DNA of 64,000 bases, from assembly GCA_963711155.1 (NCBI GenBank), contig CAVQDB010000005.1:2346382-2410381 (forward strand), given 5' to 3'. The notes beneath the pieces were generated by a model. The model was not told the DNA's origin and did no database searches. It saw only the letters and a list, made by a program, of their open reading frames with translations. Made by a program: the position numbers and the translations under genes. Position 1 is the stretch's first letter; each line of letters begins with the position of its first letter. Origin of the DNA: an uncultured Armatimonadetes bacterium. GTDB taxonomy: Bacteria > Armatimonadota > UBA5829. Positions 45,773 to 51,944 of this stretch are shown piece after piece.

Positions 45773-47994
45773 TCAGGACAGTATCTGGATGTCCTCATAC
45801 GGGTTGACGTACATGTACCTTGGTATCGCCGTCCCGTACGATATGACCGTTGACCACGACGTTCTGGCCGTAGTAGGGGAATGGCCAGACATAGGAGGTC
45901 TTGACCAGTAGATCACCACCGGAACCGTCGTTTATGTTGAACCAACCGAATATTTCGTCCGAGGCGGTGACCATGCCTCCGCATCTTATGTAGAGGCCGT
46001 CAAGCGGCGCGCCTGTGCCGGTGAGTATCGGCCTCAGGATCGTTCCAACCGGCTTGAGCGGCGTGACGCTCTCGACCTTGGTCATTGGTGCGGTAACCGA
46101 CATGACCAGGGTATTGTTGAAGCGGCCGGAGTCTGCCGCCGGTAGGATCGTGGCCGTGATATGGACCTTGTCGCCCACCGGCGGAGCAGCGGCGCCCAGG
46201 AAATCGGAGTATGGAGTGTAGGCGTCGGGGCACTCCACCAGCATGCCGGCCGAGCGGTCGGCCGCTTCCGCAAAGAACTCGACCTCGCCGCCGATGGGAT
46301 CCTCGACCACCTTGGTGACCACGGCATCAGTCTCAACAAAGCTGTAGAGACCGGCCTTTCGTGCGTCGCCAATTGTGCTAGAGATGACAGGCACGCCGTG
46401 ATCGACAAGCTCGAAGTCATCCAGGAAGACCTTGTCGTTGTTGTAGATGTTCATGCCGACATCCCAGAATAGCTTCTCAGTATCGGGACCTGTGACAAAG
46501 TCAATCGTCATCCGGCCCCATTCAGTCTGGAGGTTGGCATACAGCGGAGTGTGGTGCGTGAAGCCGGCGTAGGTCCCATCCGCCTTGCGCTCCTCTATCC
46601 CGCCGTCTAGAGCGTTGCCAGACCACACTCCTTCGGTTCTATACCACAGAGTAGCGGTATATCGGTGATTGGGCAGGCACGATACGGTCTGGTTGATATG
46701 GCTCAGTATCGCGCCGTTCGAGCCGGTGCACACCGCGCAATAGTCGCCGGCATGCGGCGAATCAGTCGTTACGTCGAAGTCTACCCCTACCTCGCCCGGG
46801 TGTCCGGGATCGGTATTGGATGTGTTCCAGGCAATCAGGTTGCCCAGCTCAAAGCCAGGGTTGAACAGCGCTCCAGGAGGGCCAAGCTTCCACACGTGAA
46901 CGTCGTCAAGATAGAACTTCTCGCTGGAGCCACCCACCATGTTGGCGCCGAAGGTCCAGTTGCCCTTCCTCGTGTAGGGAGGGGTGGCGTCCGCGGTCTG
47001 GTAGGTATAGGATGTGTGAACCCAGCTCGGGTCACTGGTACATGTGACGACATCGGTGCGGAGTTCACTGAGCTGCGCATAGGTGGCGCCGTCGTAGTCG
47101 GTACTCGTGGAATCTGATGTCCACGATGGCAGGCTGGGCTCCAGTTGCCCAGGGGCCGACCGTCTTGTAGTAGTATTCGATCTGGTACACTGTGCCGGGA
47201 TCCAGATCGAAATAGGACGAAGTGAGGGTGCTGACACCGTTGGCTGAGCCGCCGATCCCCTCGGCGCCGAAGTCGCCCGCATGCGCCGCTTCGGCCGCGG
47301 CCTGCCACGTGACGTACGGCGGGTAGCCACCCACGTTCCACGCCGTCAACGTACCGGTCTCGAAATCGCAGTTCACCGGCGGACCGGGATTGGGGGGCGG
47401 AGGAGGAGTCACTTTTTCGAGATCGAAATCGTCGAAGTAGATCGAGTCGCCAGCGGCGCCGCCGCCCTGGTACGTGTTGAGATACAATCCGCCGGAAGTG
47501 TCGCTCTCGCCGGTGTTGAAGGTGAAGGACACCCGCATCCAGCTCGGGGACGCGCCGAGATTGGTCAGCACTTTGTTCCAGGCTCCGTTGATATACAACT
47601 GAACCTGGCAGATATTGCCCGCGCCCCAGCCGGAACCGCTGGTCTTGTACCAGAATGAGACAGTGTAGTCTGAGTTCGGATCCAGCGGCACATCAACCTG
47701 CTGAAGTCCGACGGGGGAAGCACCGCCGTAGTCGTAGCCCTGAATGCAATACGATCCGGTGTGACCGCCCGGCGCGACTGTAAAGACCGTATACTGGTAG
47801 CCGTCCCAGTTGCAGCTCCACGGGGTGTCCGCGCTGGTCATGTAACTCGTCGGTCCCGGACCCGGCGCGGTACCGGACAGGGTTTGTGTCCCACCCTCGA
47901 CGCCCGGTTCCAGAAACAGATTCGCGCAGGCGGCAGGAATCGCCAAGGCCAGACATAGGGCTATCGCTGCAGCCATAGGTGCAAATCTCTTCAT
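45773..47994 (-). CDS. Secreted non-catalytic protein with three CBM4/9-like (galactose-binding-fold) modules and a conserved C-terminal domain; apparent frameshifts at 47100 and 45819
   Basis: Signal peptide MKRFAPMAAAIALCLALA, then three repeats of N..FE.G....W ... H.G.Y/F ... Y......YKT/YRT ... W...S/T ... YFDD/YLDD/FLDD. Removing one base at 45819 gives the ending YVNPYEDIQILS*; uncorrected, the ORF ends at 45795. Confidence 0.75.
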
Positions 47995-48038
47995 TTGCTT
48001 TTCTCTCCTCTCCGATTACACTCTTGTTCTGCTGTAGT

Positions 48039-48307
48039 GCTCGCTTTGTTGCCTCGCTGGAGGCGAGCGAGCTTGTTTTGAAGGGTCTTATCGCTAATCC
48101 ACGATAGTGGATTCCACCGCATCACCAGGACTGAGCCTGGTGTGCATGGAGGCACACTGACTTTGCGTTCGTCAACGAACCCCCCTTTCGCCTCGTTCTC
48201 GACTAGTTGCTTCCGCCTCGTTGTCCAAGGCGGAAGCGGGCCCGTTCCGTCAGTCCGTTACCAGACAAACTCCGGCCACTAACCAGGAATGTATGGACGG
48301 ACGGAAC
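48039..48307. ncRNA. Candidate structured RNA / cis-regulatory leader (seven hairpins) between the pilin-like and CBM genes
   Basis: Stems at 48039-48072, 48096-48113, 48123-48142, 48140-48157, 48167-48180, 48209-48237 and 48244-48307; no known family recognised. Confidence 0.35.
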
Positions 48308-48343
48308 CTGCCCAAACGCAACGCCACCCGGACAGACCGGGCG

Positions 48344-49117
48344 CTACATCTTCGAGCCAAACGGCGGATAGGAACGCAGCCATTCCTTCCTGAACTTCTG
48401 CTGCCAGTAGGTGGGGTCACCGCGGTTGCCGCAGTCGGTATTCACGGCTGGGTCCCACCACATCCACTCCAGCGGCGTCGTGCCCAGCGTGTCGTACAGG
48501 TAGACGGACTTGACGTGTCCGTCCACGAACGCGACATTCATCCTGCCGAAATGATAGAACGGCGCGTAGAGCGGTATGTTCTGGCGCAGGGCCATCTTGA
48601 AATCGCATGTCCAGATTCCGCCCTTGACCTCGCCGAGGGCGATGATCTGCGTCGGCCGCGGATACTCGGATATACGGTGCAGATGACGAAGCTGAGGGTC
48701 CGAGTCGTTGGACGTCACTTCCTGATTCAGGCCGTAGCTGCTGGGAATATCGTGTGTTATGTCCGAATCGGTGTACCAGGTGGCTGCATCTCGTATCATA
48801 GCCGGACACATGTAGGCTTTTCTGCTTCTAATGTAGGGGTAGAGAAGCAGCCGGCCCGATTTCCTGTCGGGATAGTCCGGCGGGTCTGTGTCGTACTCGT
48901 GCTGAATGCACGGCACCATGTATCCGTGGTATTCATCAGCATAGAGCAGCATGGCGTTACCGAAGGTCTTGATGTTGCCGTAGCATGCCTTCGCCTGGCC
49001 GGCCCTCTTGGCATTGAGGAACACCGGAAACAGGATAGCTGCCAGTATCGCGATTATGGTAATCACCACCAGCAGCTCGATCAGAGTGAACCCGCTTCCA
49101 CTTTTCCTGCCGCACAT
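48344..49117 (-). CDS. Prepilin-type N-terminal cleavage/methylation protein with H-X9-DG motif (DUF1559-like pseudopilin)
   Basis: G|FTLIELLVVITIIAILAAILFPVF class III signal, SYGLN, and HFGRMNVAFVDGHVK (H-X9-DG); GGAGG RBS before the ATG at 49117. Confidence 0.93.
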   Translation of the reverse strand: MCGRKSGSGFTLIELLVVITIIAILAAILFPVFLNAKRAGQAKACYGNIKTFGNAMLLYADEYHGYMVPCIQHEYDTDPPDYPDRKSGRLLLYPYIRSRKAYMCPAMIRDAATWYTDSDITHDIPSSYGLNQEVTSNDSDPQLRHLHRISEYPRPTQIIALGEVKGGIWTCDFKMALRQNIPLYAPFYHFGRMNVAFVDGHVKSVYLYDTLGTTPLEWMWWDPAVNTDCGNRGDPTYWQQKFRKEWLRSYPPFGSKM

Positions 49118-49196
49118 TTTGACCTCCACCCGCATTGGCTCAGCCATTGTGATCCAGACCAGCTAGATCACACCCCCAGATCGTGGACTGCCCAGA

Positions 49197-49216
49197 AACA
49201 CGCATTCATGCGCGTT
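49197..49216. promoter_or_regulatory. Candidate operator, most symmetric copy
   Basis: AAC-A-CGCA-TTCA-TGCG-C-GTT, just downstream of the pilin-gene promoter. Confidence 0.55.
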
Positions 49217-49245
49217 CGTGCTCACATTGCATTCCAGTACCTTGT

Positions 49246-49274
49246 ATTATCGCCCACAAATGGCCAGTTGTCAA
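49246..49274 (-). promoter_or_regulatory. sigma70-type promoter for the pilin-like gene
   Basis: TTGACA-N17-GATAAT. Confidence 0.7.
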
Positions 49275-49453
49275 GGCCCCAGCGCGACAAAACAGCATTT
49301 ATTCGCTGCACGATCCGCTTCCTCATCTCGTCGTTTGCAGCGTTTTTCCACGGTTTGGGCACACTTCAAACACTGCAAGTCGCGTGCCATAACCCCCAGT
49401 CGTGCCAAGCATCGCGCATATTCGCGCATCGGCACGCGCAATACGTGGCGGAC

Positions 49454-51944
49454 CTATCGGAGCGCGTCGTTCAGTACTGTGACTATCTCCGTGGCATACA
49501 CTACGGGCGCGCCGTTATATGAGATCGCGCCGGTGACACTCACAAACCGACCGGCGGTTGCGGAACCTGACCAGGACAACGTGCTCACGGTCAGGCCCGC
49601 GGCATCAGAGCCGTCGGTCAGGACGAACGAGCTCGGCGTCACCGAACCGGCCTTCACCATCCCCCACACACGCACATACAGACCGTTGAGCATCAACTGC
49701 TTCGCCCAGGCGTTGCGCACGCCCATCGAACGAACGCTGCCGGGGCCGGTGCGAGTGATGTCCGTTACCAGAATCCGAGACTCATTGGCCGACATCACCT
49801 GCACCGAGCCTACAAGGTTCACCATCCCCGTCGCGGGATAGCTCGTGCACAGAAGCCGAATACCGCTGATCCCATCGGGTTCCTCGATATAGCCAAGGCT
49901 CCCCGATGTCCAGTAGAGCACCTTGTCCGCGAGCTTCACGATCGTGCCGCCGGGCAGGCCCTTCACCGACGCAATCGGCCGATTCGGCGAGACTATCCTA
50001 TAAACCTGAGTGTGCTCGACGGACTCGGCATTGCCGACCGTATCTACGGCGAAGTATCGGAGCATCGTGTCGGCAATAAGCTGTATCGGGCCGGAGTAGA
50101 CGGTCGAAGCAGTCGTCGGCTCGGAACCGTTCGTGGTGTAGTAGATGACGCCGGGCTCGCTCATCGTCAACTCGACCGTGAGGGGCTTGTAGACGCCACC
50201 GACCGGGGCCGCGCTCGATGTGGGAATGGTGGTATCGACCCTGAACGGCCCAAAGTCAAGCGTCGTCGGATAGTAGGCCCCGACCTGATTGACCGACCTC
50301 AAGTGCAGGTAGAAGTCCGCGCCCGACGAAGGCGATTGCACCAGAGTACCCGAGTTCCACGTCGCCTCGGACCCGCTCCATGTGTGCGTCGCGCTGGTGT
50401 CCCAGGCATACTGGAAGGCCGAGAGGCTGCCCGGGCCGAAGCCGAGGGGGTTGCTGAACGTGAATGGCGAGCCCATCGGGTAGTACTGGCCGGTGTTCCT
50501 GTCGCAGGCGACGGTTAGGCCCACGGCGGGCGCGGCGGGAAGGGTGCAGGCGGTGAACAGAGGAGTCCTCAGGCTCGGCGACGCGCCGTTGGTTGCGATC
50601 ACCTGGAAGCTGTACTGCGTGTTGGGGCTCAGACCGACCTGCGTCCAGGAGGTCGTGTTGGCGGAGACGGTTTCCCTCAGCGTGGCGGGCATGTCCGTTC
50701 CGGCATCGACGTAGACGGCGAAGCCGGTCTCGGTGGTCGAGTTGTCCTGCCAGGTCCAGGTGGCCCTGGCAGGGCCGATATCGGTGACGCCGGTGTTGGA
50801 AGGGTCCGCGGGCGGGATCGGCACGTCGGAGGTCTTGGAGCGGAGTATGTCCAGATAGGTCGTGCCGTAGCCGGTGTAGTAGAGGCCGTTGCACGTGGGC
50901 GAGCAGCCGGGGTTGAGCGGCAGGGCCGTGTCGATTGTGCGCGTCGAGCTTCCCGAGCCCGAAGGCTCGATCTGCGTGTCCTCGTGCCACTCGTTCCACG
51001 AAGTGACGATCATCGTGCCGCGCGAGTTGCTGAGCACGGCTTTGTCGAGCAGGGCGGAGAACATCGACCCCTCCGAGTAGCTGTCGCTGATCTTCTTTCT
51101 GGACATGGGGTTGCTGCCCGATGCTACTTCGGTGTTGTTGAAGCCCGGACCGACGCCGGGATAGTAGTCTATCCCCGAGTTCGCCGCCAGGGTCTTCCAC
51201 TGGTCGCTGTATGTCTTCCAGGTGTTGAGATTGCTCGTTGACACGTAGCTTCCGGCGCCGCAGTTTTTGAGGTTGCCGTAGACGTCGTAGTTGGTGACCG
51301 CATCCATCAGGCTGCAGCGCGTCGTATTGGAGTTCGATGACGATCCCCACACCTCATCGCCTATGATGTAGACCTGGTAGCCCTTGGCCGAGGCGGCACT
51401 GCGTATATTGCTGATGTACGTAGTGAGGTTCGCCGTGCTCATGGCGCGCGTCACGTAGATTCCTATAACCGGTTTGTTGTCTATCTTGTAGTAGCTGGAC
51501 CTGCTGAAGTAGTTGTCACAGACGTAGCTCGTCTGCTCGTATACGTTACTGAGCGTGATGGCGTCAACTTCGTAGAACAGAGCGAGCTTGAGGCCGCCGA
51601 TATCGGGGTTGGGGAACATGCAGTTCCGAATTGTCCAGTCCTCGTTGGTTCCCTGGCCCCAGTAGCTGCACATGAAGAAGTCGATTCCACAGCTTCTGGC
51701 CCACAGGAAGTGGCTGCTGACGGTGGAGCTGTCGTGGCAGTTGTCACCATCCAAGGTACGGGGCCTCTTGTGGAAGAAGGTACCACCTGATTGACGAGTA
51801 GAGATTGGGGGAGCTGTGGAAGTAGTTGTCGCCGTACCACGGGTAGTAGTAGGCGCCGACGTTGAACTCGGCACACCAACACGCCGAGCGGCAGGCGGCA
51901 AGCAGCGCGATGCTGACCGCGATGATCCAACTGCTCGTCCTCAT
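49454..51944 (-). CDS. Secreted GH99-like (endo-alpha-mannanase-like) enzyme + FN3 + chitobiase/HEX C-terminal-like domain + conserved C-terminal domain; apparent frameshift near 51745
   Basis: AYYYPWYG, GIDFF..SYWG, LFYE, KIDNKPV, PGVGPGFN and VTSWNEWHEDTQIEP (GH99 motif); YYTTNGSEPTTASTVYSGPI; signal peptide present. Confidence 0.8.

Follow-up and report, generated by a model that had tools for sequence, protein, structure and literature searches.

Of the described systems that come closest to the module reported here, dockerin (PF00404) is a duplicated Ca-binding F-hand motif of ~70 aa with cohesin as its partner. The C-terminal domain (CTD) of the type IX secretion system (T9SS) is a beta-sandwich of ~70-100 aa, which always lies at the extreme C-terminus, occurs as a single copy and is cleaved by PorU (PMC4804311). 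The Armatimonadota are widespread and little studied, and the module considered here ends two genes, called gene A and gene B, in a 64-kb stretch of DNA from an uncultured Armatimonadetes bacterium (contig CAVQDB010000005.1 of assembly GCA_963711155.1, positions 2,346,382 to 2,410,381; the whole 64,000 nt are referred to as the window). An earlier note, made from the letters of the window alone, had proposed that the two tails are alike, that they form a tandem OB-fold-like module and that this directs a subset of proteins to the cell surface. The analysis described below establishes a real domain family for which neither Pfam nor NCBIfam holds a model, an oligonucleotide/oligosaccharide-binding (OB) fold that is used as an exoprotein appendage, and for which a putative role in surface targeting is plausible.

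One domain family with a tandem OB fold

A profile hidden Markov model (HMM) was built from 99 other full-length copies of the module in the same genome, with both window copies excluded. Against this leave-out HMM the tail of gene B scores 89.9 bits (E 4.6e-25, residues 640-802 of an 815-aa open reading frame (ORF)) and that of gene A 46.7 bits (E 7.7e-12, residues 318-502 of a 511-aa ORF), with each covering HMM positions from ~6 to 180-188, i.e. nearly the whole length, whereas the top score among 1000 shuffled tails was 9.6 bits. The two tails are therefore confirmed as members of one family, as had been claimed for what are otherwise unrelated proteins. A direct BLASTP comparison of the tails recovers the last ~70 residues only (33% identity, E 2e-5), sequence divergence in the N-terminal half being too great for a pairwise match. 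It had also been noted that the module was not seen on the other secreted enzymes of the window, and a profile search of the 64 kb indeed returns no further copy, even at E <= 10.

Models of both tails were built with AlphaFold2 (AF2) using a family alignment of 24-28 sequences, giving a pLDDT of 91.3 and a pTM of 0.86 for gene B and a pLDDT of 83.6 and a pTM of 0.80 for gene A. The layout is the same in the two models, with a short helix and five strands followed by a linker helix and a further five strands. Foldseek searches against the PDB returned OB-fold proteins exclusively, at a probability of 0.9-1.0; over ~200 columns the tail of gene A aligns with Teb1-AB, HIN-200 and RPA70-AB (E 5e-6 to 1e-4) and that of gene B with the SSB of D. 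radiodurans, HIN-200 and RPA, and the neighbours of the single barrels are Ten1, Stn1, RPA14 and the anticodon-binding domains of aminoacyl-tRNA synthetases (TM-score 0.6-0.7). When the first half of the module is compared with the second using hhalign the two are matched with a probability of 95% (E 3.2e-8), and the tandem OB is therefore internally duplicated. Membership of the OB-fold superfamily is carried by the two sets of five strands in both tails, by the OB-only neighbours and by the agreement of the sub-threshold Pfam matches set out below, and with the tandem-OB neighbours and the comparison of the halves this bears out the tandem module that had been suspected from the translations.

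A match to an already characterised domain, which the earlier note had wished to see checked, was not found: nothing in Pfam or NCBIfam scores above threshold on the module in genes A and B or in 28 paralogues. The models that do respond below threshold are RMI2, BOF, tRNA_anti-codon, Rep_fac-A_3, YgiW/YdeI and ExeM_NucH. BOF (PF04076) gives a weak match on the first barrel, OB1, in four of the 28 members (best E 0.004) and TIGR00156 (YgiW/YdeI) in two of them (E 9e-4), in both cases below the curated gathering cut-off and in neither case on the window copies, whilst ExeM_NucH weakly matches two of the 28 (E 0.03). A profile search against PDB sequences found RPA14 at E 0.011, on the second barrel, OB2 (profile positions 125-181), and YgiW (1nnx) at E 0.3, and there is also a weak sequence match to the OB region of the EEP nuclease 9sf8. 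Homologues in a collection of 5.8 billion proteins are nameless or called 'hypothetical protein' and a precomputed Pfam hit is attached to almost none of them; furthermore full-text searches of the literature turned up no description of such a module.

Carriers, copy number and lineage

Iterated profile searches of the six-frame ORFs of this genome identified 157 ORFs that carry the module, which correspond to ~145 genes and include 101 full-length copies, and the module is not limited to a subset of proteins as had been proposed. A single domain that lacks a model marks ~2-3% of the gene content of this genome and thousands of public protein clusters, with at least 5,860 clusters at 50% identity (E <= 1e-3), or 2,270 at E <= 1e-30, in a representative library. 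A family model would improve the annotation of every genome in the class.

The window's own genome and 30 relatives were searched and a match is present in 30 of these 31 genomes; 28 relatives have from 17 to at least 104 copies each, several of these counts being lower bounds, and the module-poor relatives are G015 with no copies, G007 with one and G017 with four. Among 121 genomes sampled across the phylum, nine of the 11 from the same class have at least 26 scored candidates each, with another same-class genome, G131, having none, whereas one or two weak matches (E 7e-11 to 8e-4) are found in only five of the ~110 genomes from other classes. As genomes of the same class are rich in the module while other classes are almost without it, the expansion is a class-level and not a phylum-wide feature, and the lineage restriction that had been anticipated is confirmed. 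The few genomes from the same family or class that lack the module or are poor in it (G015, G131, G007 and G017) have neighbours with 30 to >100 copies, and module-poor and module-rich members of the class offer a natural contrast for finding a partner or machinery.

Within the genome the module genes are clustered beyond chance, with 26% of the gaps between them <6 kb compared to an expected 14%. A separate observation is that G000 C3:1360309-1396135 holds at least seven large genes with a closely related sub-type of the module, 'ATPVAKISDLWP...GLYNIGMLVRIAG...VTGLVGVVGGKPVIVIRG'.

The carriers are 200-2500 aa in length and 103 Pfam families were identified among 52 representatives, examples being NosD/beta-helix, RCC1, CHB_HEX_C_1, CarboxypepD_reg, FGE-sulfatase, Peptidase_S8, LRR, FG-GAP and WD40; the passengers also include deacetylases, amidases and propellers. 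The Sec signals that had been looked for are present in so far as most carriers with an intact N-terminus have a signal-peptide-like start, which in many is unmistakable: a crude test finds one in 63% of carriers against a background of 26%, and most of the carriers that fail this test look like truncated or mis-started gene calls.

When the 150 best representatives are considered, 101 have a copy that ends <=15 residues from the C-terminus, 11 copies lie directly behind the signal peptide and the remainder are internal, and two or three copies are found in 22 of the representatives. The supposition that the module would always be C-terminal is thus not upheld, as this is true of only about two thirds of carriers, the others having N-terminal, internal or multiple copies. 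The N-terminal copies of this genome are on proteins with propeller, polysaccharide-deacetylase, PKD and InlB-repeat domains. In a sample of 20 copies from eight relatives, the C-terminus of the protein lies 2-6 residues past the last strand in 14.

The module is acidic, with a median isoelectric point (pI) of 4.95, a pI <6 in 81% of copies and a median net charge of -5. The copy in gene A conforms to this (pI 4.7) and has retained both the conserved Glu and the conserved Arg, and it is the copy in gene B that is the outlier, being basic (pI 9.4) and having its conserved Arg in the 'IEE.DR' motif replaced by Gly, whereas its closest paralogues are acidic and have kept the Arg.

Further variation was observed among the carriers. 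In one subfamily of the module the last strand reads 'G.LVNVL.VR.Q.DI.V' and is followed by an extra Ser/Pro-rich tail of 16-35 aa that ends '(S/T/N)xPR(D/H/K)'; PR[x] is found within the last 14 residues of 15 of 16 such tails and in 7 of the 134 other representatives. Examples are representatives P0028, P0062, P0072 and P0109, G000 C5:281169-283598 (-), L036 and L038, and this PR mini-tail may be a second, linear C-terminal signal. Several N-terminal copies have a lipobox-like L-x-x-C ('LLAAC', 'AIAAC', 'VASAC') 3-6 residues before them, as in G000 C5:1829155-1830306 (+) and representatives P0071 and P0079, and some carriers may accordingly be lipoproteins in which the module would sit beside a lipid anchor.

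There is also a conserved family of short proteins (~270-300 aa) which consist of a signal peptide, an N-module of ~60 aa with the pattern 'YRIDW..SGGG..Y.L..T.GQP...HWIGFW' and the tandem OB. Across many metagenomes the members share 50-63% identity, and three are found in G000, at C5:1818264-1819094 (-), C2:946394-947269 (+) and C5:1374921-1375814 (-), two of which come after a large gene with a product that begins '..YQGKL.D..G.P'. On an Armatimonadota-like metagenome contig (ENA contig k141_171026) a gene of 383 aa, L011:4838-5989 (+), precedes a short module protein by 12 nt and matches the Pfam model HAP2-GCS1, of the gamete fusogen family (E 3.6e-13, 49.4 bits with a cut-off of 27.4), over profile positions 363-465 of 515 only; L012 is a further case.

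Possible roles of the module

The export signals, the unrelated passengers, the dozens to hundreds of carriers and the sharp lineage boundary argue for a general localisation handle and not for a substrate-specific carbohydrate-binding module (CBM). We would give an even chance to the reading in which the module is a docking or retention handle that binds a common partner of the envelope or matrix. The module is a self-folding, non-catalytic unit of ~180-200 residues, composed of two OB barrels that arose by internal duplication, which one class of Armatimonadota fuses to dozens to >100 Sec-exported proteins per genome, usually as the last domain and regardless of the activity of the passenger. 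Once exported, it would attach to a single partner common to all carriers, a glycan or a protein that belongs to the envelope or the matrix, and enzymes and binding proteins that would otherwise be free to diffuse would thereby be held at the cell surface.

Such a handle would act in the mode of a dockerin, an SLH domain or a cell-wall-binding module and would differ from a cleaved secretion tag; it is the positional flexibility and the occurrence of multiple copies that favour a dockerin- or SLH-like binding module over a cleaved tag. Of the analogies that had been drawn previously, the one with SLH, a position-flexible binding module, is the better fit, but those with the T9SS CTD and PEP-CTERM fit poorly given the N-terminal, internal and multi-copy occurrence. 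SLH itself is not the general anchor for exoproteins here, since there are just two matches to it in the whole genome.

A number of points weigh against a docking or retention handle. The role is inferred from architecture, and no cohesin-like partner or scaffold has been identified, although no systematic search for a partner was made. The extreme C-terminal bias of the copies sampled from relatives (14 of 20) would equally be expected of a recognition tag, and fragmented gene calls may account for some of the copies that look 'internal' in the representatives. Finally the module is dispensable, as G015 and G131, from the same class, live without it.

If the module does have a defined partner on the envelope, this would show how the class retains its hydrolases, proteases and adhesin-like proteins at the cell. 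The module could furthermore be put to use as a display tag, and it would be one of the few RPA/Stn1-type OB folds to have been recruited to an extracellular role.

The best placed of the alternatives, although in our judgement an unlikely one, is that the module is a cargo tag, which would be recognised in its folded form by a putative outer-membrane translocon or attachment machine dedicated to this in the class. Such a machine would bring the protein across the outer membrane or onto it, and the tag might be cleaved as in T9SS. It is the strong bias to the very C-terminus that keeps this role under consideration, with about two thirds of carriers ending exactly with the module, usually 2-6 residues past the last strand. 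The dozens to >100 carriers per genome with their unrelated passengers, the sharp lineage boundary and, in one subfamily, the extra linear '..PR(D/H/K)' tail as a possible processing site would all be in keeping with it. However, the copies that follow a signal peptide, are internal or occur in tandem are unlike anything seen with T9SS CTDs or PEP-CTERM, and searches for pseudopilins and secretins found no candidate machinery. A more elaborate version, which we hold to be doubtful and to rank just behind the simple tag, would make the module the address label of a class-specific system for surface display or outer-membrane translocation with its own receptor or processing machinery, an OB-fold counterpart of T9SS-CTD/sortase in which the PR mini-tail would be the processing site and of which the machinery would also have been lost in G015 and G131.

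We infer that the two alternatives that are left rank below a cargo tag. It would seem improbable that the module targets its carriers to a substrate, by binding a polymer of the environment, for example a polysaccharide or extracellular DNA, in the way of a CBM or of the OB domains of extracellular nucleases. The nearest structures are DNA binders, the ExeM/NucH nuclease model and the OB region of 9sf8 are weakly matched in sequence, and both window genes are annotated as acting on glycans (Pfam). Set against this, the acidity of the module is a poor fit to DNA or other polyanions and argues against their binding despite the fold relatives, such that extracellular DNA binding is rejected as the general function of the family; proteases, LRR proteins, propellers, amidases and many other passengers are unrelated to glycans and make a single substrate implausible. 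The motifs 'F.IDDGSG' and 'FYIEE.DR..G' also look structural and not ligand-specific, since they correspond to the beta2-beta3 hairpin that is common to RPA/Stn1-type OB folds (PDB profile search and what is established for these families).

Least probable is a domain for folding, stability or oligomerisation that has no role in localisation and would serve as an intramolecular chaperone or, as in RPA and CST, bring about OB-OB multimerisation, for although the nearest sequence relatives (RPA14/RPA32, Stn1/Ten1 and RMI2-type) act via OB-OB assembly and the predicted two-barrel unit is rigid (pTM 0.80-0.86), comparable exoproteins occur without the module in other classes and in two same-class genomes, and a chaperone would leave its attachment to >100 unrelated folds and its multi-copy occurrence unexplained.

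Gene layout and comparison with known systems

The features of the two genes are collected in Table 1. The coordinates in the earlier note were right in part: genes A and B do begin at the ATG codons given, at 47994 and 51944 respectively, but 45773 is ~22 nt too low as the lower limit of the tail of gene A, which extends down to 45798 with the stop codon at 45795-45797; the stop codon of gene B is at 49454-49456. The proteins end ...VRDGDTKVHVRQPV (gene A) and ...EIVTVLNDALR (gene B).

Table 1. Features of genes A and B, in positions of the window
Feature	Position (nt)	Strand	Content	Basis
Gene A	45795..47994	minus	signal peptide, ~3 CBM_4_9-like jelly-roll modules, tandem OB tail	ORF list, translations, Pfam
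Gene A signal peptide	47923..47994	minus	MKRFAPMAAAIALCLALAIPAACA	read from the translation
Gene A tandem OB module	45798..46391	minus	198 aa	leave-out HMM, AF2, Foldseek
Gene A OB1	~46068..46391	minus		
Gene A OB2	~45798..46004	minus		
Gene B	49454..51944	minus	signal peptide MRTSSWIIAVSIALLAACRSACWCAEF, GH99/WbsX-like, fn3, CHB_HEX_C_1, tandem OB tail	ORFs, Pfam
Gene B GH99/WbsX-like domain	~50957..51742	minus		Pfam Glyco_hydro_99, E 4.4e-13
Gene B fn3	~50570..50803	minus		Pfam, E 7.4e-9
Gene B CHB_HEX_C_1	~50018..50206	minus		Pfam, E 1.3e-18
Gene B tandem OB module	49457..49993	minus	179 aa	leave-out HMM, AF2, Foldseek
Gene B OB1	~49724..49993	minus		
Gene B OB2	~49457..49681	minus		

Each of the genes contains one frameshift. 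In gene A it lies near 47100-47112 and divides the gene into ORFs 47065..47994 and 45795..47330, the N-terminal of which has the CBM_4_9 match (Pfam, E 2.9e-14); in gene B it lies near 51745-51765 and the downstream part is the 815-aa ORF, in which the beta-sandwich just before the OB tail is the separate CHB_HEX_C_1 domain. These frameshifts are probably indel errors of the (long-read) assembly and not the mark of pseudogenes, since many further module genes of the same genome are likewise split across adjacent ORFs, as seen from adjacent partial matches, and the assembly (five contigs, 5.64 Mb) has a completeness score of only 60.6%. No orthologue of gene A was found in 12 relatives searched, nor one of the GH99-like part of gene B in ten; a 75-aa N-module query gave zero matches even within the same genus, so little can be read from it.

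Between the two genes, at 48344..49147 on the minus strand, is a prepilin-type, H-X9-DG pseudopilin-like gene (NCBIfam TIGR02532, TIGR04294). A link of the module to pseudopilins, considered on account of this gene, was rejected, as genome-wide 10 carriers are within 4 kb of ORFs with a prepilin motif where 8.5 are expected (p 0.36). The secretin of the type II secretion system (T2SS) was likewise rejected as co-varying machinery, as each of the 14 class genomes tested has it, the two module-free ones among them.

It is in the OB folds of RPA14, RPA32, Stn1-Ten1, RMI2 and tRNA_anti-codon (PF01336) that the same five-stranded barrel is found, and HIN-200, RPA70 DBD-A/B, Teb1-AB and the Deinococcus SSB are tandem-OB units that align with the module over ~200 columns. 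The full-length TM-score to tandem-OB proteins is only 0.3-0.4 and the two barrels are therefore arranged differently. Whilst the RPA/Stn1-type relatives are cytoplasmic or nuclear binders of nucleic acids, mostly with a basic binding face, the module is an acidic domain that is exported via Sec and joined to exoenzymes.

The T9SS CTD of Bacteroidota resembles the module in being a folded C-terminal domain that is common to many secreted proteins of one lineage, but the module is a tandem OB of ~190 aa that is also found at the N-terminus, internally and in multiple copies. The T9SS CTD models (TIGR04183/PF18962) give no match on proteins A and B in Pfam or NCBIfam, and a search of the genome with TIGR04183 gave zero matches, as it did in control genomes, so that this absence carries little weight. 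PEP-CTERM and LPXTG signals are C-terminal, with a short motif that leads into a hydrophobic helix and then a basic tail, whereas the tails of the module end '...R.R...DI..' with no hydrophobic segment.

With dockerin and SLH the likeness is one of mode, as these are non-catalytic, are common to the unrelated exoenzymes of one organism, are mostly terminal yet flexible in position and are sometimes duplicated. In fold and sequence they are unrelated to the module; dockerin, the fold of which is different, gave no Pfam match, SLH (PF00395) gave none on proteins A and B, and no cohesin-like or secondary cell wall polymer (SCWP) partner has been identified.

Finally, BOF (PF04076/TIGR00156; YgiW, YdeI) and the N-terminal OB domains of ExeM/NucH are, like the module, exported bacterial OB folds. 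The BOF proteins are small, stand-alone, periplasmic single barrels, whereas in the module two barrels are fused and appended to hundreds of multidomain proteins.

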